Below are positions 7,108 to 36,657 of a DNA stretch of 64,000 nt, piece after piece. How positions within the stretch are numbered: position 1 is the stretch's first letter; each line of letters opens with the position of its first letter. The position numbers and the translations under genes are program-made. The stretch is from NCBI GenBank assembly GCA_913048525.1, contig CAJWWP010000003.1, positions 7,190 through 71,189 of the forward strand, written 5' to 3'. Under the pieces are notes generated by a model. The model ran no database searches. It worked only from the letters and a program-made list of their open reading frames with translations, and was not told where the DNA came from. The stretch is from an uncultured Chloroflexota bacterium (lineage in GTDB: Bacteria > Chloroflexota > Dehalococcoidia > Lucifugimonadales > UBA826).

Positions 7108-7488
7108 CTAGCAGTCTGCCTTTACAGATACAATCTCTCCCGTATCCTCGTAATACCGCCAGAAAGCACCAGACAGTTGATCCGTAACGGTCCATTCGTG
7201 ACCTTCCCTGTAGTGATGGTCATTCGTCCACGGCATTCGCATCCAAACCGCCTCAAACCGGTGAGCGTTTTTCAAATACATATCTCCATTAGAACATTCT
7301 TCTTCCAAAAATTTCCTTACCTGAAATAAGGCTTCGGAACGGGGTTTTCGAGGAGTATTTTCTGCTACAGCTGTGGCCTGAGTTTCCGCACTAGTTGCCA
7401 AGCTTATCTCTGTAAACGGAATTCTACCGTAGGAACCAACAAGTATAATTGCAACGGCTATTGCCCCTACGATGAACCATTTAAGCAA
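7108..7488 (-). CDS. Hypothetical protein with N-terminal signal/anchor
   Basis: 126-aa ORF with hydrophobic N-terminus, downstream of the ABC permeases on the same strand. Confidence 0.6.
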   Translation of the reverse strand: MLKWFIVGAIAVAIILVGSYGRIPFTEISLATSAETQATAVAENTPRKPRSEALFQVRKFLEEECSNGDMYLKNAHRFEAVWMRMPWTNDHHYREGHEWTVTDQLSGAFWRYYEDTGEIVSVKADC

Positions 7489-16455: not shown

Positions 16456-17667
16456 CTAGATCGCTCCAATCTCTTTCAAGTTCGCTATGCTGTCAGGGTC
16501 GTATCCTAATTCTCCTAGAATTTGTTCATTATGCTCCCCCAATTTTGGAGCAAACCCTGGTTTACTTGGTGTTTCTGACATTTTCCATGGTGTCCCATGT
16601 ATCTTTACCTCTTCACCCAACTCGGGGTGCGTTACCGTTTTCACATATCCACTGTCAACAATATTCGGATCCTGAGAAGCCTCCAACATGGTGTTGACAG
16701 GAGCCGCGACTATGTCCGCAGACCGAAGGATATTTATCCAATTATCCCGAGTATTCGTTGCAAAAAGTTCCGCAAGCTTGTCTAGTATTGAATTCTTTTT
16801 TTCCTCCGACTCAAAGGCCATTCCCAGATCGGTCAGGTCTGCCTCCTCCATTGCCTCTAGAAATCCCAAACTTTCCAAGGCGGGCAACCAGTGCCTTGCA
16901 TCCAATTGCATAGCCAGAGGTCTTCCATCAGCATCGTTAAAACAAGCTGCTATCCCAGCTCTATCTCTCGTCCCATTTATGCGAGCACCGGTGATTGGTG
17001 GTTTGTTTTTCCACATGGTAGTTGCCATTGTCCAACCCATAAGGCGAAAAGCACTACCAACTAGAGAGGTCTCAATCTTTTGTCCAACGCCTGTTTCCCT
17101 TGCATGGATCAAAGCGGCGAGCACGCCGCCAAATGTAAGTATTCCGCAGGTTTCATCTGCTACTGAGGCGACACCTGTTCGCATTGGCTGTCCTGGTATT
17201 GAGAACGCTTCTGTAACTCCGCCTATTGCCTGTCCAACCGCGTCCGTTCCGGGAAGAGCCGCATCAGGTCCATCCGGTCCATAGCCAGACACAGATGCAT
17301 ACACAAGTGCCGGATTGATTTTTTTTAGTTCCTCATACCCAAAACCGTATCGTTCCGCAGCCCCAGGCCTAAAGTTTTGACCGAATATATCAGCCCTTTG
17401 GACCAGTTGATGGAGTATCTTCTTGGCTTCATCAGTCCGTAGGTTCAGGGTTAGGCTTTTTACTCCTCTGTTGTTAGTCTCAAAAAAAGAACTCACTTCA
17501 CCCTTCAGTTCTCCAGCTCTACGTGAATTATCTCCTCCGTTGGGAACCTCTATCTTTATTACTTCTGCACCTAGATCTGCCATCAACGAATAGGGTACCG
17601 TTCCTGCTTGCGCAGTCGAGCAGGCCACAACTTTCACGCCGGTTAGCGCGCCTTGCAATTTAGCCAT
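16456..17667 (-). CDS. Class III CoA-transferase (CaiB/BaiF family)
   Basis: ADLGAEVIKIE, NNRGVKSLTLNL, NFRPG, putative catalytic Asp in SVADET, APKLGEHN. Confidence 0.92.
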   Translation of the reverse strand: MAKLQGALTGVKVVACSTAQAGTVPYSLMADLGAEVIKIEVPNGGDNSRRAGELKGEVSSFFETNNRGVKSLTLNLRTDEAKKILHQLVQRADIFGQNFRPGAAERYGFGYEELKKINPALVYASVSGYGPDGPDAALPGTDAVGQAIGGVTEAFSIPGQPMRTGVASVADETCGILTFGGVLAALIHARETGVGQKIETSLVGSAFRLMGWTMATTMWKNKPPITGARINGTRDRAGIAACFNDADGRPLAMQLDARHWLPALESLGFLEAMEEADLTDLGMAFESEEKKNSILDKLAELFATNTRDNWINILRSADIVAAPVNTMLEASQDPNIVDSGYVKTVTHPELGEEVKIHGTPWKMSETPSKPGFAPKLGEHNEQILGELGYDPDSIANLKEIGAI

Positions 17668-20862: not shown

Positions 20863-22191
20863 ATGACTCAAAGTAAGGACTTTATATCTGATCTATTAAA
20901 CGAGAAGTCCATTTTTCAATCGTATCTTGATGTAGAAGCAGCACTTGCAAGAGCTCAGGCTGCACTGGGTGTAATTCCTCAATGGGCGGCGGACATAATA
21001 TCTGAAAAATCCAACTTGGAACTCTTGAATATGGAGAATGTTTATTCAGGTCTTGAAAAAACAGGACACCCACTAGTCCCTCTCATCTGGGAATTGGATA
21101 GAGTTTGTGGGCCACAGGCAGGAGGATATATTCACTGGGGAGCAACAACTCAAAATATCACACAGACGGGAAAACTATTATTGGTCAAACAATGCCATGC
21201 TTACTACAAACAGGAATTGGGAAAACTCCTACTCACACTGGCAGAACTTGCTGAGAGATCAAAAAATTATACGATGCCAGGACGAACCCATGGTCAGCAT
21301 GCTGTGCCAGCAACTTTTGGATATAAAGTTGCTGTTTGGATTGACGAGCTAATTAGACATACAGAGAGAATGACTAGCTGTGAAGATAGAGTGTTCGTAG
21401 CGATGCTTGGAGGGGGAGCAGGAACGATGGCTTCTGTTGGTTTAGAGGGACTGAAAACACAAGATCTTATAGCAGAGGAATTGGGAATTAGTTCAATGTC
21501 AATGCCCGCTAGAACAATAGGTGACCACCTGACGGAGTACATCACAATTTTGGCAATGCTGGCCGCAACATCAAGCAAGATGGCGCGGGAGGTCTATACC
21601 ATGATGAAGCAGGAGTTTGGTGAAGTGGAAGAGCCCGTTCCGGTCGGTGCGGTAGGCTCGTCTACGATGCCGCAGAAGCGCAACCCTCGTCTTAGTCAGG
21701 ATGTTGTGGCATGGGCTTCGGAAGTGCGCACCTATGTGCCTATGTCTTTAGAAGCTATGCAAACGGAGCATGAAGCCGATAAAACTACTAGCATGATGAT
21801 AAATACGGCAATCAATAGGGTTTGTTTTTTGACCGGCAAGATTATAGATGGATTGAATGAAATTTTCTCCGATATAAACCTGTTTCCGGAGAGAATGAGG
21901 AAAAATCTTGATCTGTCAGGTGGACTTATCATGTCTGAAAGAGTGATGCTTGAACTTGGGAAAGAGATAGGAAGGCAAAGAGCCCATGATGCCGTTTATG
22001 AAGCGGCTCAAAGGGCGGTTAATGAAGGAAGGGCATTTAGTGAAACTTTGGCGGAAGAAAAGGAAATAGCCTCGTTACTATCGACGGAACAGATTGACGA
22101 TCTTCTAGATCCTGAGCGATACACTGGTCTATGTGCTTACTTTGCCGAAACATTTGCAGAAAAAGCACGGGTGGTCTCAAGGGACCTGTAG
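20863..22191 (+). CDS. Adenylosuccinate lyase / 3-carboxy-cis,cis-muconate cycloisomerase family lyase
   Basis: HWGATTQN, GRTHGQHA, fumarate-lyase signature GSSTMPQKRNP. Confidence 0.88.
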   Translation: MTQSKDFISDLLNEKSIFQSYLDVEAALARAQAALGVIPQWAADIISEKSNLELLNMENVYSGLEKTGHPLVPLIWELDRVCGPQAGGYIHWGATTQNITQTGKLLLVKQCHAYYKQELGKLLLTLAELAERSKNYTMPGRTHGQHAVPATFGYKVAVWIDELIRHTERMTSCEDRVFVAMLGGGAGTMASVGLEGLKTQDLIAEELGISSMSMPARTIGDHLTEYITILAMLAATSSKMAREVYTMMKQEFGEVEEPVPVGAVGSSTMPQKRNPRLSQDVVAWASEVRTYVPMSLEAMQTEHEADKTTSMMINTAINRVCFLTGKIIDGLNEIFSDINLFPERMRKNLDLSGGLIMSERVMLELGKEIGRQRAHDAVYEAAQRAVNEGRAFSETLAEEKEIASLLSTEQIDDLLDPERYTGLCAYFAETFAEKARVVSRDL

Positions 22192-22210
22192 CTACGGGTT
22201 GATTTGGAAA

Positions 22211-23404
22211 CTATTTGAGGCCTATAGGCAAACTATTTGGGATAGTATCTGAAGCTCTCAGATTGGCTAATTCAGAGTCTGATATTCCGAAGCTTTTTAA
22301 AATGGCATTTGTGTCGCCGCCGAAAGAGGGAGGCTCAACCTCAACTAGATCACATTCAGACATGACGACGGGATTACCCGGCCAGGTTACGTCACCCCAA
22401 TGACGAGATCCTTTAATATTTTCTTCCTCATTATGAATATTTCCATAGGTTCGTTCAACGACAATTCCTCTTCTCCTATTTCCTTCCTCTCTATGAAGCT
22501 CGGAGGCGTATTTGTTTATTGCAACGGGAACTCCAGCAGAGGAGAGTAGAGAAACCCAGTGGGTACTTGTGTTAGTGAGAAATATGTCTTGCAGATGCTG
22601 ACTACTTGGATGACTATCCATATTAGCGAAAGAGGGAATAGATTGAAGTGCAAGCGATTCATCACTATTTGAAACAGAAAGAAAAATCCAAGAGTCGTCT
22701 GCACATTTATACAACTGGTTAAAGGAATCAGTTCCTCTTATTCCTGGACCCCCTAAATCGCGACGACTATATCCTGGATAATCAACATGATAAGGTCCGG
22801 TAATGGTCGCAGAAGTATAAGAAAGTGCGGCCTCTATTTTTTGCCCTCTTCCAGTTTTTTCCCGATCCAGCAAAGCAAGCATGACGGCATAAGCAGCGGA
22901 GATACCGGTTCCGTAGTCGTTCAAAGTGAAAGTAGCGGGACGAGGTCTTTGTGGCTGTTGGGGGTCAGAGACTCCAGCGTTGCGCAGTTGTATTCCCGTA
23001 GCGGCCTGCGCATTTTGCTCAAAGCCGGGTCGCATCTGCCAGGGGCCTTCCTGCCCGAAGCAGTTTATGGAGCCATAAATAATTTCCGGATTTAGATTCT
23101 TCAAAGCCTGGTATCCAATACCTAGTCTATCGGCAACACCTTTGCGAAATCCTTCCAACACTACGTCAGCCTTACCGGCCATAGTTAGGAAGGTGTCGAG
23201 TCCCCCAGGTTTTCCTAGGTTGAGTGCGATGCTTTGCTTTCCTCTCCCTACGTCAAGCCAGGGCGTGAGTTGAGGGGGGCGAAAGTCAGGATCTACCTTG
23301 ATTACATTGGCTCCATACTGAGCTAATGTACGCCCACATGTGGGCCCAGCAAGAACTATGCAAAGATCCAGCACAGTCACACCATCTAAAGGAAGGTCAT
23401 TCAT
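22211..23404 (-). CDS. Class III CoA-transferase subunit carrying the catalytic Asp
   Basis: PLDGVTVLDL, AGPTCGRTLA-YGA-VIKV, GFRKG, LNDYGTG; ATG at 23404 just after the upstream stop. Confidence 0.88.
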   Translation of the reverse strand: MNDLPLDGVTVLDLCIVLAGPTCGRTLAQYGANVIKVDPDFRPPQLTPWLDVGRGKQSIALNLGKPGGLDTFLTMAGKADVVLEGFRKGVADRLGIGYQALKNLNPEIIYGSINCFGQEGPWQMRPGFEQNAQAATGIQLRNAGVSDPQQPQRPRPATFTLNDYGTGISAAYAVMLALLDREKTGRGQKIEAALSYTSATITGPYHVDYPGYSRRDLGGPGIRGTDSFNQLYKCADDSWIFLSVSNSDESLALQSIPSFANMDSHPSSQHLQDIFLTNTSTHWVSLLSSAGVPVAINKYASELHREEGNRRRGIVVERTYGNIHNEEENIKGSRHWGDVTWPGNPVVMSECDLVEVEPPSFGGDTNAILKSFGISDSELANLRASDTIPNSLPIGLK

Positions 23405-23411
23405 ACTGAAG

Positions 23412-24497
23412 TTAATTATCTCCCGGCATCTCAGGAGCAGGTGTTTTGACCTGTCCAAGATTCCCGTGGGTTTTAACAAGTAATCCCGGTTGTTTCATCC
23501 TCCCGAATATTGGGTCATTTATCTGAACGACTGCACCCGAGTCTGAAGCCTGTGGTTCGTCTAGCCATTCATCCACTGTTCTGCAGGCAGTTCCGGGAAC
23601 TCCAATATGTTCCATAAAGGTTTCCCACTCAAGTGCTGTTCTCTCGCTCCATATTTCCTCGAACTTTTGGTTCCATTCTTCTAAAAGGTCGCCATCGGAA
23701 TTCAGCAGTTTATTATCAGTCAGGTGATCCAGCCAGTCGGGGTGTCCTATTGCTTCAAGAAAAGGTTCTAAAAATCGAGGAATTGCGATGTTTACATTGA
23801 TCCATCTGCCATCTCGGCATCGATAAAAACGAGCAATAACCGGATGCCCCTCCTGTTTACCATGCGGTCTTTGCGAGTGTCGCACTAGTGCAGTGCCCAT
23901 ACCTTGGTACATTGAGTCGTGGATAGGCACTGTTATTTGCTGCCCCTTTCCTGTTTTTCCTCGGTATAGCAATGCAGCTGTTACAGCGGGAGCCGCTGTT
24001 ATTGCGGCGAAGGTGCTGGCGTAATAAAGTTCATGGAAGGAAGGCCCCTCTTCTGGTACTGGGTCATCTCCGGATGGGTTAAGAGCATAAACACCGGAGC
24101 TGGCAGCCACCAGACCTTCACGTGCTGGTAACCAACCCAGTGGATGATCTTCTTGAAATGCTGGAATCGATACCACCACGGGCTCCTTATCAGCAGTTAT
24201 CTGGGAGAGGGAGGCAAATGTAAGACCAAGAGCGGTTTTCTCGGAAGCATCAAGACATTCGATGACTATATCAGCGCCATTGGCAAAATGAACGACTGTA
24301 TTCTTCGAGTAAGTGGACAAAGAGGAAAATTTTCCTCGATTCCACACTGCGAACTCTTCCGTACCCCTGGAAGGGTCTCCACCTAGAGGCTCTATCTTAT
24401 GAACGTCAGCTCCTTGGTCTGCTAAAAGCATCCCAAGTATAGATCCAGCCGGATAGCGGCTGAACTCGACTACCTTATATCCGGCTAAGACACCCAT
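23412..24497 (-). CDS. Class III CoA-transferase subunit, degenerate (no Asp at the catalytic position)
   Basis: LADQGADVHKIEP, WNRGK, YRCRDGRW; YYASTFAA in place of the Asp motif. Confidence 0.85.
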   Translation of the reverse strand: MGVLAGYKVVEFSRYPAGSILGMLLADQGADVHKIEPLGGDPSRGTEEFAVWNRGKFSSLSTYSKNTVVHFANGADIVIECLDASEKTALGLTFASLSQITADKEPVVVSIPAFQEDHPLGWLPAREGLVAASSGVYALNPSGDDPVPEEGPSFHELYYASTFAAITAAPAVTAALLYRGKTGKGQQITVPIHDSMYQGMGTALVRHSQRPHGKQEGHPVIARFYRCRDGRWINVNIAIPRFLEPFLEAIGHPDWLDHLTDNKLLNSDGDLLEEWNQKFEEIWSERTALEWETFMEHIGVPGTACRTVDEWLDEPQASDSGAVVQINDPIFGRMKQPGLLVKTHGNLGQVKTPAPEMPGDN

Positions 24498-24533
24498 AAG
24501 AAAAACTAAAGCTGGTAAGGGTTACCCCCTTAC

Positions 24534-26174
24534 TTACCTGTACTGATCTATCCCAATGGTTGCAGAAGATGGCCCCGACGGAAAAACTAAGGTTTTAGCT
24601 CGATCTGCGCCTACAACGACTATGTCTATATCGTCTGGGCTATGAAGCAATGGAACTTCGGTGGACAGAATTTCTTCTTCGGTCTGATTCCGTAGGTAGT
24701 GCCAATTTTCATGCACACGGGCATCTCCCAAAGGCATGTACTGGATCATTTTACCGAGGCTATTATTGGCATGCTTATGTATGAACTCTCTTGCATCTTT
24801 TTTGGAGAAACCTTCCCCACCTACGGGGCCAGCAACGTCCGGAGGCATGAAGATTAACCTTTCATGCCCTCCGGCACGACTTCCACCGAGGGTTGTGTTT
24901 CCAAAGGTGATTCCATAGGCTAAAGTTTTCAACAAACCTTCGGCTGAAGTGTTTCCTTGATCCTGTACGTCTAGCTCACCGTCGGTTACGAAAATTGATA
25001 TAGCACTTTCACTGGCTTTGAATCCACGATCTTCTGCATATGAAGGCCAAGGACTCATATCCTCATTTTCGCCTAAGCAGTGAACAAATTTTCGAGTCGT
25101 TCCGATCGTGTCCATATCCATCTTATTCGGATACCACATTCCTATGTTTTTAAGGCAAAGGTAAAAAGCTCTCCCGATTATGATGTTTATTTCATTATCT
25201 CGACCAGGACCCAGAGCTGATCTTGGATTGAGACCAACCTCTTTGGCAATAGGTCCGTTTACTACGAGAATAGGGGCATGAGGGCTTGTGGACATTAAAA
25301 GGGACTTTCCTCCATGTTCCCCCATTTCAGAAAGACATTTGACTGCAGCGATTATTATTGGCATGTGTTCAGGTTTGGCTCCTGCCAGAGCGGAATTTAT
25401 CGCTATTTTTTCCACTGTGGCAAGTCCAAATCCAGGGGGCATGTCGCACACTACGTGGTCAGATGGGAGGCTGGTACCGGATATTAGATCAGCAACTGCA
25501 GATTCTGTCGGAGGAAAAACAGGGAGAGCATCAGACCAATCCCTGCGAGTGTAGTCAGAGTTCATTTTCAGGATAGCGTCAAATCTGTCTTCACCCTCAT
25601 ATCTCAGTGTAGACTCTTGGTCTTCTGGGGTGGTGTCGTTGGTACTGTCGGCGGTGAGACACGAGATTAATTCATCCATTACCTCTTCTGTCTGAGTGAC
25701 ACATAGGTTGTCGGCGAGATTACGATATATTCTTGGGACGATCACAAACTGCAAATCAGGCATGCCAAAAGCTCGACTACTGGCCAGGGCGTCGTCTTCG
25801 AATCGCCCGGAAACGATTGGGACAGCTGGCTTACCCATTTTTTCTATTTCAATCATGTCGTGGCACATCCACGACGCGCATGTCCCTCAATCAGCCGTTG
25901 CACCTATTACGACATCACATTCCTCTCCTGCTTGTTTCACTATTGGAGGTGGGGTGGGGTAGTTTCCGCCCGTGTAAAAGTTAATACTTACATCGCTGAA
26001 ACGTTCTTGGATGATTTCGCCAGCACGATTTAAAGCTAGGTCACCACCGTGCGTGCCACTCCAGACAAGGCCAATAGTTAGACCGTCTAGAGATTTGGGT
26101 CTGGGGTTGGTTCTTAATATGTTCATCATCCCACGCTGTTGAGCGACAGGATTAGATACTTCCAGTAGGTGCAT
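24534..26174 (-). CDS. UGSC-family-like selenoprotein (U96 in a UGTC motif) with a large C-terminal domain, 546 aa with Sec readthrough
   Basis: ORFs 25887-26213 and 24534-25868 are in frame, separated by TGA plus 6 sense codons: ATAD-U-GTCASWMCHD; GGAGG RBS before ATG 26174; SECIS-like hairpin follows the UGA. Confidence 0.85.
25854..25882 (-). promoter_or_regulatory. Putative bacterial SECIS element
   Basis: mRNA UGA-GGGACAUGCGC-GUCGUGG-AUGUG-CCACGAC: perfect 7-bp stem starting 11 nt after the UGA, with GU in the loop. Confidence 0.7.
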
Positions 26175-26278: not shown

Positions 26279-26908
26279 GTGATGAATGACATGGAGCCAT
26301 GCGGGTTGCTCGTTGCCACTAGAAACGCTGCGAAGATGCAAGAATTAATGGTCCTTCTCGGGGACACCAGGTATAACCTGCTGTCCTTGAATGAGATGTC
26401 CATTGACCCGGGTTACGAGGTGGAGGAAACTGGCTCGACTTTTGAGGAAAACGCGATATTGAAAGCTGAGGGCTATGGTGCTATTTCGGGAATGATGACG
26501 CTTGCCGACGACTCTGGTCTTGAAGTTGATGCACTGGGTGGTGCCCCGGGGGTTTTATCTGCCCGGTATGGTGACGAAACATTAGATGATTTGGGCAGAA
26601 ATGAGCTGCTCCTCAAAAACGTGTATGGATTGCCAGAAGAGGAACTTACTGCCCGGTTTAGGTGTGTTGTGGCTATTTATACTCCGGGTGATGGGACAGT
26701 GACTTTTGATGGAAAGATTGAAGGCAATATCACACATAATCCTCGAGGTGGCAATGGGTTTGGGTATGACCCCTTATTTTTTTTCCCACCTAAGGCTAAA
26801 ACACTTGCGGAGATACCCTCCAGGGAAAAACATGAGGTATCACATAGAGGTACTGCGGTGAGGCAGGCAGCAAGCTACTTGCGAGAAAGAGGTGAGTCTG
26901 GATGTTGA
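26279..26908 (+). CDS. rdgB: Non-canonical purine NTP pyrophosphatase (RdgB/Ham1)
   Basis: ATRNAAK, ETGSTFEENA, ADDSGLEVDALGGAPGVLSARY, GFGYDP, SHRG. Confidence 0.95.
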   Translation: MMNDMEPCGLLVATRNAAKMQELMVLLGDTRYNLLSLNEMSIDPGYEVEETGSTFEENAILKAEGYGAISGMMTLADDSGLEVDALGGAPGVLSARYGDETLDDLGRNELLLKNVYGLPEEELTARFRCVVAIYTPGDGTVTFDGKIEGNITHNPRGGNGFGYDPLFFFPPKAKTLAEIPSREKHEVSHRGTAVRQAASYLRERGESGC

Positions 26909-27918
26909 AAGCTGAACCTCTAGATAAACTGTCCCGCCCTCTAAGGGATTTAAGGGTGTCTGTGACGGATCGTTGCAATTTTCGATGTCCTTACTGCATG
27001 CCCGCTGAAATTTTTGGCGAAAGATACGAGTTCCTCCCAAGAAATGACCTTTTGACGTTTGAAGAGATAACTCGAATCGTTCTGCTGTCAACTCAACTTG
27101 GTGTGAAGAAAGTCAGATTGACGGGGGGTGAACCTCTTATAAGACAGGATATCGTTGAGCTTGTATCAATGATAGCAAATATTGGTGCCATAGAAGATTT
27201 GGCTATGACAACCAACGCTTATCTTCTCTCTGGAATGGCAGAAAGCCTGAAAAAAGCAGGGTTGCAAAGGATAACAGTGAGTCTAGATTCTATTGACGAC
27301 GAAGTATTTCGTAAGATGAATGGCCGAGGATTCGGGACAGCAAAAGTTATGGATGGTATAGCTGCAGCGAAAGAGGCTGGTCTGGACCCAATTAAAATCA
27401 ATGCTGTTGTGCAAAAAGGTATTAATGACGACACATTGGTTGAACTAGCACGGTGGTGTCGAGATAACGGCTACACCCCGCGGTTCATTGAGTACATGGA
27501 TGTGGGTACATTAAATGACTGGAAGTTAGACGAGGTGCTCCCAGCGGCTGATATTGTGAGAATAATAGAGAGGGAATTTGCGATTGAACCTATTGAACCT
27601 TCCTACCAGGGAGAAGTTGCAAAAAGATATAGCTATAAGGATGGGAAAGGGGAGTTTGGGGTTATTTCGTCTGTGACGCAACCGTTTTGTGGTGACTGCA
27701 CTAGGCTGCGACTATCTCCAGAGGGACAAATTGTCACGTGCCTGTTTGCGGACGGAGGAACTGATCTTAGGGGACCCATGAGAGACAACATTACTGATAA
27801 GGATTTGCTGAATCTCATGTCAGGAACCTGGACAAATAGGGAGGATCGTTACTCAGAGATTCGTACGTCAATGACTAGCCCAAGAAAAAAGGTTGAGATG
27901 TACCACATAGGTGGCTAA
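26902..27918 (+). CDS. moaA: GTP 3',8-cyclase (radical SAM)
   Basis: LRVSVTDRCNFRCPYCMP, FC-C-RLR...CLF twitch domain, C-terminal IGG. Confidence 0.96.
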   Translation: MLKAEPLDKLSRPLRDLRVSVTDRCNFRCPYCMPAEIFGERYEFLPRNDLLTFEEITRIVLLSTQLGVKKVRLTGGEPLIRQDIVELVSMIANIGAIEDLAMTTNAYLLSGMAESLKKAGLQRITVSLDSIDDEVFRKMNGRGFGTAKVMDGIAAAKEAGLDPIKINAVVQKGINDDTLVELARWCRDNGYTPRFIEYMDVGTLNDWKLDEVLPAADIVRIIEREFAIEPIEPSYQGEVAKRYSYKDGKGEFGVISSVTQPFCGDCTRLRLSPEGQIVTCLFADGGTDLRGPMRDNITDKDLLNLMSGTWTNREDRYSEIRTSMTSPRKKVEMYHIGG

Positions 27919-27933
27919 GAAGAGGAAATTCTT

Positions 27934-28884
27934 TTGTCAATGATCACTATCTACACTGACGGGGCTTGCATAGGGAATCCTGGACCAGGAGGTTGGGGGG
28001 CTGTTATATCTGGTGACGGTCCCCAAAGGTCTCTTCATGGTAGAGACTCGGATACAACCAATAATCGTATGGAAATCCTCGCTGTAATTAGAGGCTTGGA
28101 AGATTTACCCGAAAATTCCGATATTACTGTTTATTCCGATTCTTCCTATGTCATTAACACCATGACGAAGAACTGGAAACGAAACAAAAATCAGGACCTC
28201 TGGAAAATCCTTGATGGAGAAGTCGGCAAGAGGAATGTCCAGTGGGTTTGGGTTAAAGGACACGCTGGGGATCCGCTAAACGAAGAGGCCGACCGTCTTG
28301 CGCATTCGGAGGCTGTTGGGAAGCCCGTTTCACCTGTTGGAGAAACATCACCAAATATAGTGGGAGGGGTAGCAATGGAGCAAAAAGAAGAAAAAGACTT
28401 ATTTGGTAAGGTTGATAAGTTAACCCATGTTGACGAGCATGGAGAAGCCAGAATGGTAGATGTTGGAAGTAAACCTGATACTGATCGGGTGGCGGTAGCA
28501 AAGGGGTTTGTGAAGATGAAAGCCCAGACGATCGAGTTAGTAAATGCAAATGGAGTTGAAAAAGGGGATGTTTTGGCTGTTGCTCGAGTCGCTGGAGTTA
28601 TGGCAGCGAAGCAGACTTCGAATCTTATTCCTCTCTGCCATCCATTGCCATTGACGCAAGTGACCATCGATTTTGATATTGATATAGAGACCTCAACTAT
28701 TTTAATAACAGGGATTGCAAAGACTAGAGGGAAAACCGGGGTGGAGATGGAAGCTTTAACAGCAACCTCTGTGGCTGCTTTGACCATATATGACATGTGT
28801 AAGTCCGTGGATCGAGGAATGAGTATGGGAGCACGTCTTTCCAGTAAGACCGGCGGACAATCAGGGGATGTTTTTTTAGACTAA
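27934..28884 (+). CDS. rnhA-moaC: Fusion of ribonuclease HI and cyclic pyranopterin monophosphate synthase MoaC
   Basis: N-half YTDGAC-GNPGPGGWG, TNNRME, SDS-Y, WVKGHAG...NEEAD; C-half LTH...MVDV, LIPLCHP, GVEMEAL, YDMCKSVD; no stop between them. Confidence 0.9.
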   Translation: MSMITIYTDGACIGNPGPGGWGAVISGDGPQRSLHGRDSDTTNNRMEILAVIRGLEDLPENSDITVYSDSSYVINTMTKNWKRNKNQDLWKILDGEVGKRNVQWVWVKGHAGDPLNEEADRLAHSEAVGKPVSPVGETSPNIVGGVAMEQKEEKDLFGKVDKLTHVDEHGEARMVDVGSKPDTDRVAVAKGFVKMKAQTIELVNANGVEKGDVLAVARVAGVMAAKQTSNLIPLCHPLPLTQVTIDFDIDIETSTILITGIAKTRGKTGVEMEALTATSVAALTIYDMCKSVDRGMSMGARLSSKTGGQSGDVFLD

Positions 28885-34134: not shown

Positions 34135-36657
34135 TTATCTATTTCCTATAAGTTCTCGTGACGTGGCTCCGGATTTTTCTAGCTCATCAACTTCTGACTG
34201 CGAATATCCCAGTTCCGACAAAATAGTTTCATTGTGCTGACCAAAGCTAGGTCCGGAAAACTTTGGGAGCTTTGGACGTCTGGTTAGCCTCCATGTTGGC
34301 CGTGCGGTAAGGTGTTTTCCTTTAGCATCGTGTTTTACTGTAACGAAGTTCTCTCTTTCAACCGAATGAGGGTCTGTGAGCAATAATAATGCGGTTTGTA
34401 CAGGTGCCGCAGTTACACCGTTATTCTGCAAAGAATTTGCGATGTCATAGGAATCCTTTGTGACCGTCCATTCTGAGATGATGTCGTCTATAACCTTTTG
34501 GTTATCGAGCCTTCCCTCAACCGAAGAATAGGCGGAGTCAAAAAGTCTGGAATCTCCCACCACTTGAGTAAGTGACAGCCATTCTTTGTCTGATTGGCAA
34601 TTGATAGCAATCCATCGGTCCGTGACGGTATCGATGGTTTGGGTTTCAAGGTCCTCGTCGTCGTTTGGAAACACGCTCAGAATTGGCCTAGGTTCAGGAT
34701 CAGGCAGGCATGGATAAATTTCATGCGGAGCGTATCCACTGCGTTTATTGCCCGTTTTTGTTGGTATTCTGCAACCTAGAGCTTCAGCAATTATGTATTC
34801 GCCAATAAGGCCAGTTACTCCATCTCTTTGGGGTAATAGACAATAACAACCCTTTCCAGTGAGGGCCTTATGTATTAGGGCTGCTACTGCTGCTGCTGCA
34901 CACGTTGCTCCTGCGATGGGGTCACCATAAGATATTCCAGATTTGTGGGGAGCATCATTTTCATATCCTTGAAGTGCAACCAGACCACCCATTTGCTCTA
35001 TGGTTGGACCAAATCCTACTCGAGATGCATCGGAACCTTGGTGCCCAAACCCAGGCATCGATATGTAAATGATGTTGGGATTAAGCTTCCTTATGTCGTT
35101 ATATCCCAAACCATTTCGGTCGGCTACTCCAGAAGACCAGTTTTCTACGAATACATCTGCCGTTTTGATGAGCCGTTTTAGTGCTTGCATTCCAGGTTTT
35201 TTCTTAAAGTCTAGTGTAAGACTTCTCTTTCCCCGGTTATATTCATTGAAATAGCTTGAAAGGTTAATGGCGGGGGCTGTACGGCTTCCCCCTGCGGTCC
35301 TAACAGGGTCCGGAAAAGTTGGACCTTCTACCTTTATCACGTCAGCGCCCATATCTGCTAGAAAGCGCATTGCGTACGGCCCAGACCATACTTGTGTCAT
35401 ATCCACGACTTTTATGTTTTCAAGTGGAAGCGTTTTAGAGATAGAGGATATACCAGAGACAAGTGATTTTTTGGGCCCCTTGATGCGTATTGGTTCAGAA
35501 AAAATTTCATCATTATGTTGTCCAAGTAAAGGAGCTGTTGAAAAGTTGCCCTTATCGACTTTTGAGCTAGCATTTTCAGGGTTGAGGGTAAACCATATCG
35601 GTCCAGAGGGCACCGGGTGTTTTCCCAGAACTGGATGGGTTACCTCTTGCCAGAAATCTGTTTCCTTATGGTGAGGCCATTGAAGCAGTTCTGCCGGCGT
35701 AGGAATCATCGCGAAAGGCGCACGGTAGTCGTCAGCGATCTCAAATATTTCCTGGGCAGTATGTTTCATAGTGAAATTGGGAACTAAAATTCTCAGCAAT
35801 TCATCAGCATCCGGTGACCAGGCGCTGTTTGCGAATAGAGGATCTTTTTTCATATCCGATAGTCCCATGACGTCAAGAACCGAGTGAGTTTGTCTCGGCA
35901 TTGACGCGACACCGATCCAGCCATCCTTACAAGGATGAACTCCCCAAAGAGCTCTTGGATTGTTACCTCCTCGTTGTTGGTCGCCTCCATACCAGAGAGC
36001 AACCGGACCAGCTCCTTCCAGGGTGGCCGTCTGAACTTCTTGTATAGAGATATCTATGATGTCACCGACCCCTGTGTTAGTAGCAGCATATATCGCGGTC
36101 AGGAGCGCTCCAAACGCGTGGAGACTTGCTTGCATATGAGCTTGGTGCCCTGCAGTTAGCAGCGGGGGTTTATTTGCATCCCCAGTCAGATACATTTGTC
36201 CTCCAGATGCGTATGCTGTGAGAGCACTAGTTGTCCACTGGGAATAGGGCCCTGTTTGTCCGAAGGGAGTCACTTGGACAATTGATAGAGAGGGTTGTAT
36301 CTCGGAGAGAGCAACAAGATCAAGGCCCAAAGACGTGAGTTCTCCTGGCTTATATCCGTCAATGATTCCATCTGAACTCAAAACTAGTTCGGATGCTTTG
36401 GCCACGTCTGCAGGGTCTTCAAAGTTAAGTACAACAGAACGTTTTCCAGTGCCCAGATATGCAAAAAGTATACTGTTGTTAGGATCTAGTGGGTCACCCG
36501 TGTTGGGAGTGGGAGGCAGGTGACGGATGGGATGCCCACCGGGGGGTTCGACAGTTATTACATCGGCACCGTAAGCAGCGAATAACCTTCCGACGTTCGC
36601 AGTGGCTACATCAGTTCCTAATTCTACTATTCGCAGATTACTGAGAATTTGATTCAT
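34135..36657 (-). CDS. Double-domain class III CoA-transferase (two fused CaiB domains)
   Basis: Two CaiB units; the first lacks and the second has the catalytic Asp (SYGDPIAG). Confidence 0.9.
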   Translation of the reverse strand: MNQILSNLRIVELGTDVATANVGRLFAAYGADVITVEPPGGHPIRHLPPTPNTGDPLDPNNSILFAYLGTGKRSVVLNFEDPADVAKASELVLSSDGIIDGYKPGELTSLGLDLVALSEIQPSLSIVQVTPFGQTGPYSQWTTSALTAYASGGQMYLTGDANKPPLLTAGHQAHMQASLHAFGALLTAIYAATNTGVGDIIDISIQEVQTATLEGAGPVALWYGGDQQRGGNNPRALWGVHPCKDGWIGVASMPRQTHSVLDVMGLSDMKKDPLFANSAWSPDADELLRILVPNFTMKHTAQEIFEIADDYRAPFAMIPTPAELLQWPHHKETDFWQEVTHPVLGKHPVPSGPIWFTLNPENASSKVDKGNFSTAPLLGQHNDEIFSEPIRIKGPKKSLVSGISSISKTLPLENIKVVDMTQVWSGPYAMRFLADMGADVIKVEGPTFPDPVRTAGGSRTAPAINLSSYFNEYNRGKRSLTLDFKKKPGMQALKRLIKTADVFVENWSSGVADRNGLGYNDIRKLNPNIIYISMPGFGHQGSDASRVGFGPTIEQMGGLVALQGYENDAPHKSGISYGDPIAGATCAAAAVAALIHKALTGKGCYCLLPQRDGVTGLIGEYIIAEALGCRIPTKTGNKRSGYAPHEIYPCLPDPEPRPILSVFPNDDEDLETQTIDTVTDRWIAINCQSDKEWLSLTQVVGDSRLFDSAYSSVEGRLDNQKVIDDIISEWTVTKDSYDIANSLQNNGVTAAPVQTALLLLTDPHSVERENFVTVKHDAKGKHLTARPTWRLTRRPKLPKFSGPSFGQHNETILSELGYSQSEVDELEKSGATSRELIGNR

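Follow-up and report, generated by a model that had tools for sequence, protein, structure and literature searches.

A UGSC/Unknown_1 selenoprotein with remote GrdB homology, neighbour of a split class III CoA-transferase in one SAR202 family

The locus described here consists of three closely spaced minus-strand genes within a 64,000-nucleotide stretch of DNA (the window; positions 7,190 to 71,189 of contig CAJWWP010000003.1, assembly GCA_913048525.1) from an uncultured Chloroflexota bacterium (Dehalococcoidia; Lucifugimonadales; UBA826). It contains a selenoprotein gene (24534–26174) and the genes of two class III coenzyme A (CoA)-transferase subunits, A (23412–24497) and B (22211–23404), with intergenic gaps of 36 nt (selenoprotein to A) and 7 nt (A to B). 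All three genes are real, as the initial annotation had stated, and belong to known families. GrdB ancestry of the selenoprotein is supported; a joint pathway of the three genes, proposed in the same annotation, is not. The preferred reading, considered likely, is that of two probably independent enzymes whose adjacency within one SAR202 family is due to descent: a self-contained GrdB-like selenoreductase and a two-gene class III CoA-transferase. They are probably separate because they are neighbours only within one marine SAR202 family. The link to the CoA-transferase is probably inherited gene order in a transferase-rich genome. The useful lead is the GrdB relation of an abundant selenoprotein family without known function, likely a self-contained reductase.

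The open reading frame (ORF) of the selenoprotein, 26174–24534, encodes 546 aa. A single in-frame TGA is present at codon 96 (25889–25887), in the context A-D-U-G-T-C, so that the U-G-T-C motif comprises selenocysteine (Sec) 96 and Cys99. Eleven nucleotides after the TGA begins a 7-bp stem-loop with a G-containing loop (25875–25857), of the bacterial Sec insertion sequence (SECIS) type (z −2.6; 5/200 shuffles equally good). Related loci were the best 80 of 187 in the genome collection. Two of them are cut at the site; in the other 78 the codon is TGA without exception, and a sequencing error is rejected on this count. The SECIS stem is near-invariant across related loci, two of which carry a compensatory change from G-C to A-U. 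SelA, SelB and SelD, the last with its own TGA, are encoded in the genome. No tRNA-Sec was found in the source genome (87% complete); a match above the family cut-off was obtained in 14 of 21 genomes searched, a congener among them. From the conserved TGA, the SECIS hairpin and the SelA, SelB and SelD of the host, the gene is confirmed as that of a UGTC selenoprotein, as initially annotated, with Sec incorporation predicted. In two relatives a tRNA-Sec gene lies 1–2.5 kb from a split UGSC paralogue (G007:C2:115225-115318; G004:C96:84248-84341). On a Paracoccus plasmid selB lies near a UGSC/Unknown_1 module.

The selenoprotein is a member of the known UGSC/Unknown_1 fusion family. The UGSC (Sec) domain spans approximately residues 1–180 (25635–26174, minus strand), and the Unknown_1 domain, the constant partner of UGSC domains, approximately residues 184–546 (24534–25625). 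Residues 8–174 match PF24696 (97.4 bits against a cut-off of 25; E 1.4e-27). The UxxC motif and PF24696 are common to this protein and the UGSC family, whereas the motif here is U-G-T-C and the NF041046 equivalog cut-off is missed (86.1 bits against 125). The C-terminal domain bears the same Unknown_1 motif as the UGSC/Unknown_1 fusion in the available part of PMC2398784 (Fig. S1A). No Pfam or NCBIfam model matched it, and an atlas search with it returned unnamed clusters only. A sequence search of solved structures with the selenoprotein gave no match. Of 46 metagenome loci with sufficient flank, 38 contain both UGSC and Unknown_1, as do all 12 plasmid loci examined (12 of 24 hits). Two further split UGSC and Unknown_1 paralogues are present in the genome (G000:C31:10761-12420; G000:C88:1920-3620), each with its own TGA in U-G-S-C. 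Close orthologues of the selenoprotein were found in 5 of 401 genomes in a class-wide search. In the available part of PMC2398784, UGSC is represented by 255 sequences in 37 samples, which places it with the most abundant selenoproteins of ocean and freshwater metagenomes. According to the available part of a 2026 review, UGSC proteins are still without known function. The literature compared, as far as its texts were available, was PMC2398784 with its four supplements, PMC13188914, PMC1976440, PMC9312934, PMC5395668, PMC11659651, PMC10818641 and PMC10298544, with subscription journals mostly uncovered; no statement of a GrdB relation or of a CoA-transferase link of UGSC was found in the parts on UGSC.

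In HHalign comparisons the UGSC domain matches GrdB profiles at 96.8%, with Sec aligned on Sec, and at 94.8% with Cys masked. Remote homology of the Sec domain to the Sec region of GrdB/PrdB is supported by these profile matches, as had been guessed in the initial annotation. The homologous Sec region, with UxxC/S, is shared with GrdB/F/H (glycine/sarcosine/betaine reductase) and PrdB (D-proline reductase). The selenoprotein differs from GrdB in lacking the rest of that protein, with no PF07355 or TIGR01917/01918 match and weak ones only in homologues, and from GrdB and PrdB in the fusion of its Sec domain to Unknown_1. The UGSC domain matches a 4-sequence GrdE/PrdA profile at 47.7% (E 2e-4). 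GrdA gave 0 matches in the genome; the control genomes gave none either. The predicted model of the UGSC domain has the topology beta-alpha x5, and its top structural matches are of the flavodoxin/Rossmann type. The fold is accordingly predicted to be flavodoxin-like, in contrast to the thioredoxin-like fold proposed in 2008 (PMC2398784, available part). An enzyme of that published kind, acting as a peroxide or thiol-disulfide reductase and not cleaving C-X bonds, would fit the same gene arrangement. It is doubtful: the model does not resemble thioredoxin, none of the 50 structural matches listed is a thioredoxin, and the thioredoxin profile reaches 4.7% against 96.8% for GrdB. It keeps some standing because fold does not fix chemistry.

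Placement of the Sec domain with GrdB/PrdB and not with thioredoxins leads to the expectation that the selenol attacks a carbon bearing a leaving group, Unknown_1 being the substrate-binding part. In glycine and D-proline reductases the alpha carbon of a carbonyl-activated amino acid is the target of the selenolate, and subsequent cleavage of the selenoether goes along with formation of a selenenylsulfide (PMC10298544 and PMC13188914, available parts). By analogy, Unknown_1 would bind or activate a small substrate, in the role of GrdE/PrdA. The selenolate of Sec96 would attack the substrate and displace its leaving group by C-N or C-S cleavage. Cys99 would resolve the selenoether to a selenenylsulfide, which thioredoxin would re-reduce. 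Recycling by thioredoxin is indirectly supported by trxB beside the UGSC/Unknown_1 module in 3 of 12 plasmid loci and, in 4 of 79 metagenome loci, by N-terminal extensions carrying CxxC. A wider proposal, that UGSC/Unknown_1 is a new, GrdE-independent glycine/proline reductase branch acting on marine dissolved organic matter by cleavage of C-N or C-S bonds, with the split CoA-transferase recruited in one SAR202 family to convert the substrate into a CoA ester, is judged improbable as a whole. A betaine, thetin or dimethylsulfoniopropionate substrate, suggested in the initial annotation, is rejected, with no neighbour or family match pointing there.

Other GrdB/PrdB-like genes were seen in the genome and its relatives. 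A separate PrdB-like selenoprotein of 397 aa (U-P-A-C), which has an additional domain at its C-terminus, is encoded at G000:C9:44635-45828 (L171:1453-2646), with similar matches in many relatives. True GrdB-type genes lie beside GrdE/PrdA in two SAR202 relatives (G010:C9; G028:C1:1981866-1985579), the gene of G028 having U-x-x-S, not U-x-x-C.

Subunits A (361 aa) and B (397 aa) both belong to PF02515 (195 and 228.5 bits). B contains LND163YG, with the catalytic Asp163; A has YYA160S161TF at the same place, with no Asp. The Asp is present in 20 of 21 aligned B orthologues, one being unreadable, and absent from all 19 A orthologues covering the column. Fused homologues were taken as the best 120 of 566 long homologues of B. 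In all 120 the N-half is matched by A and the C-half by B, Asp being present in each C-half and absent from each N-half. The A/B pair is itself fused in one relative. On this pattern of halves and on the fused relative, A and B are regarded as a split double-domain transferase and most likely form a heterodimer with one active site, as predicted from sequence; the earlier description as an inactive plus an active subunit agrees with the position of Asp163. The class III CoA-transferase cycle proceeds via an aspartyl-CoA intermediate. Asp163 of B would form this intermediate, and A would complete the interlocked dimer and shape the pocket. One half is inactive in BbsEF, SptAB and IaaL, and DddD and IaaL are double-domain enzymes. 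Set beside these four, A and B together have the PF02515 fold, two unlike halves and one Asp. BbsEF, SptAB and IaaL are named as two-subunit or double-domain class III CoA-transferases in PMC10818641 and PMC11659651, and DddD in PMC5395668 (available parts of each). No passage on an inactive subunit was found in literature searches for heterodimeric class III transferases. The relation of A and B to solved members is remote only (E 1e-18 and 1e-14 for B with the two chains of BbsEF), and both are far under every NCBIfam equivalog cut-off.

Of the 1705 ORFs of the genome, 22 are of the CaiB family, a point absent from the initial annotation. This number is in line with the CaiB/BaiF paralogue expansion of SAR202, with 62 in five single-cell genomes (PMC5395668, available part). 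In the passages of that paper available, the split A/B pair is not discussed and 'seleno' is absent from the main text. The A/B enzyme would function on its own, among the many CoA-transferases of SAR202. One of the genome's four fused double-domain class III CoA-transferases, 840 aa long, is encoded in the window at 34135–36657 (minus strand).

Loci with at least 76% identity (15 loci) were assigned to the family; 65 loci with 61–73% identity were placed outside it. The conserved order in the family is Obg, lyase, B, A, variable slot, Ham1, MoaA, MoaC. The selenoprotein occupies the slot beside A and B in 12 of 25 family genomes, of 6 genera. Both parts are present but apart in 4. A and B occur without a selenoprotein orthologue in 4; in three of these (97, 94 and 78% complete) not a single UGSC-family match was obtained. 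Two (96 and 70% complete) carry the selenoprotein in the slot but not A and B. Of the remainder, 1 is unresolved and 2 have neither part. The slot is empty in 5 family genomes and holds FBPase in 2. In a FastTree phylogeny of four backbone proteins from 22 genomes the linked state is found on most branches and is broken on at least four, a pattern suggesting an ancestral but dispensable trio. Ham1, MoaA and the lyase have stayed next to the trio to about the same extent, so ordinary synteny suffices to explain it. The lyase gene (20863–22191, plus strand) adjoins B convergently in 19 of 20 scorable genomes with A/B. The 4 relocated copies of the selenoprotein group together in a separate clade (support 0.998).

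Outside the family the genes are no longer linked, the outcome that the initial annotation had named first as refuting its pathway. CaiB is the next gene in 0 of 53 non-family orthologue loci with at least 2.5 kb downstream, and any CaiB lies within 6 kb in 1 of 65. One orthologue lacking any CaiB at that distance (locus L111) belongs to a cultured SAR202 relative. The neighbours there are a mix of unrelated families, often convergent. CaiB density within 6 kb, in genes per Mb, is 9.4 at 40 SAR202 paralogue loci, 7.0 at 79 metagenome loci and 20.9 at 12 plasmid loci, against a genome background of 11.7; the probability of reaching such counts is 0.74, 0.87 and 0.24, respectively. Within 1.5 kb of distant homologues CaiB is found on 4 of 178 flanks (2.2%), against 61 of 2924 (2.1%) in the background. 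The test is a rough one, with the background drawn from the source genome only and the paralogue loci being kin. For 9 distant nearby CaiBs tested, A or B was never among the four best matches in the source genome. The three-gene pathway is therefore not supported: near distant homologues there is no CaiB excess, and each part occurs alone in 96–97% complete genomes.

Several observations weigh against the reading as two independent enzymes, one of them a GrdB-like reductase. As to the reductase, the GrdB match spans 82 columns only and the GrdB profile is shallow; a GrdB query of solved structures found no GrdB/PrdB relative for fold comparison. GrdE/PrdA (PF09338) is absent from the locus, with 0 matches in the 87%-complete genome, while 4 of 4 GrdB-bearing controls were positive. 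Unknown_1 shows no resemblance to the 4-sequence GrdE/PrdA profile (0.05–0.4%). The proposed role of Unknown_1 is thus without direct support, this domain being unlike GrdE/PrdA and GrdE/PrdA not having been found in the genome. A Cys of Unknown_1 conserved in many homologues (AVMAGC) is Ala in this selenoprotein. No thioredoxin gene adjoins the source locus. As to independence, the trio is apparently ancestral and retained in 12 genomes. By start calls the gap between selenoprotein and A is 3–8 nt in 5 genomes, which fits co-transcription; three other genomes have 34–36 nt, two have 95–96 nt and one has about 275 nt, while in a further genome the gap is unclear. Each of the 4 relocated selenoproteins is directly followed by a different CaiB, the orthologue of a further class III CoA-transferase of the window (16456–17667, minus strand), in an apparently independent adjacency. 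CaiB lies within 3 kb in 3 of 12 plasmid loci (Natrinema, Halorientalis and Roseovarius), one in the same apparent operon; 1.7 are expected by chance within 6 kb (P 0.24).

On the grounds of the ancestral-looking adjacency in 6 genera, the short gaps and the GrdB homology, a pathway limited to the family could be envisaged, in which A and B make the CoA ester of a heteroatom-substituted acid and the selenoenzyme reductively cleaves its C2-heteroatom bond; CoA activation could stand in for the missing carbonyl activation by GrdE/PrdA. It is judged unlikely, with each part found without the other in nearly complete genomes, orthologues at 61–73% identity never having CaiB as the next gene, and Ham1, MoaA and the lyase retained about equally. 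From the second adjacency and the plasmid CaiBs it could also be supposed that UGSC/Unknown_1 enzymes generally use CoA-linked substrates together with interchangeable class III transferases, not necessarily adjacent; the Natrinema CaiB is 45% identical to one near a SAR202 paralogue. Little credence is given to this: CaiB is not in excess over background at 6 kb or 1.5 kb, and nearby CaiBs are mostly 28–36% identical, 9 of 9 tested having neither A nor B among their four best matches. Two probably independent enzymes remain the preferred reading. On the Natrinema plasmid a lyase 33% identical to the product of 20863–22191, a CoA-transferase and phosphosulfolactate synthase adjoin the UGSC genes. 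In another SAR202 lineage (L099, L102-L104, L107, L143, L145-L147) the gene next after the selenoprotein orthologue belongs to the AroM family, with a thiamine pyrophosphate-dependent enzyme beyond it where the contig extends far enough; this makes a second neighbourhood specific to a lineage.

Co-transcription of the trio is an inference, not an observation. The 36-nt gap contains a hairpin (24533–24515) followed by a T-rich tract, a putative terminator or RNA-processing site about which the initial annotation was silent. The hairpin is not listed in the terminator scan. Promoter-like sites are at chance level (10 against 9.4). Metatranscriptome contigs were compared from four RNA runs, found with this stretch, at 85% likeness. 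Parts of the selenoprotein gene are covered in 4 of 4 runs. The contigs end at 24472–24493, just inside the start of A, in three. The body of A is covered by none of the four and the 3' part of B by one. One transcript is neither shown nor excluded by these data, which are contigs only, from runs found with this stretch, with no DNA run as comparison.

The backbone genes beside the variable slot, Ham1, MoaA and RNase H-MoaC (26279–28884, plus strand), are divergent from the selenoprotein gene. The last (27934–28884) is a fusion of RNase H with MoaC, which are separate ORFs in several relatives. The lyase convergent to B is an adenylosuccinate-lyase-family paralogue and a conserved backbone member. 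It shares 28% identity with another copy, on contig C24, that is more PurB-like, and it scores under all NCBIfam cut-offs (best PRK08937, 383 of 626 bits; XcbD, 366 of 600). A short stretch between lyase and B (22192–22252) resembles a tRNA-Sec query (blastn, 87% over 61 nt), as does a stretch of contig C76; the query possibly included flanking or repeat DNA.

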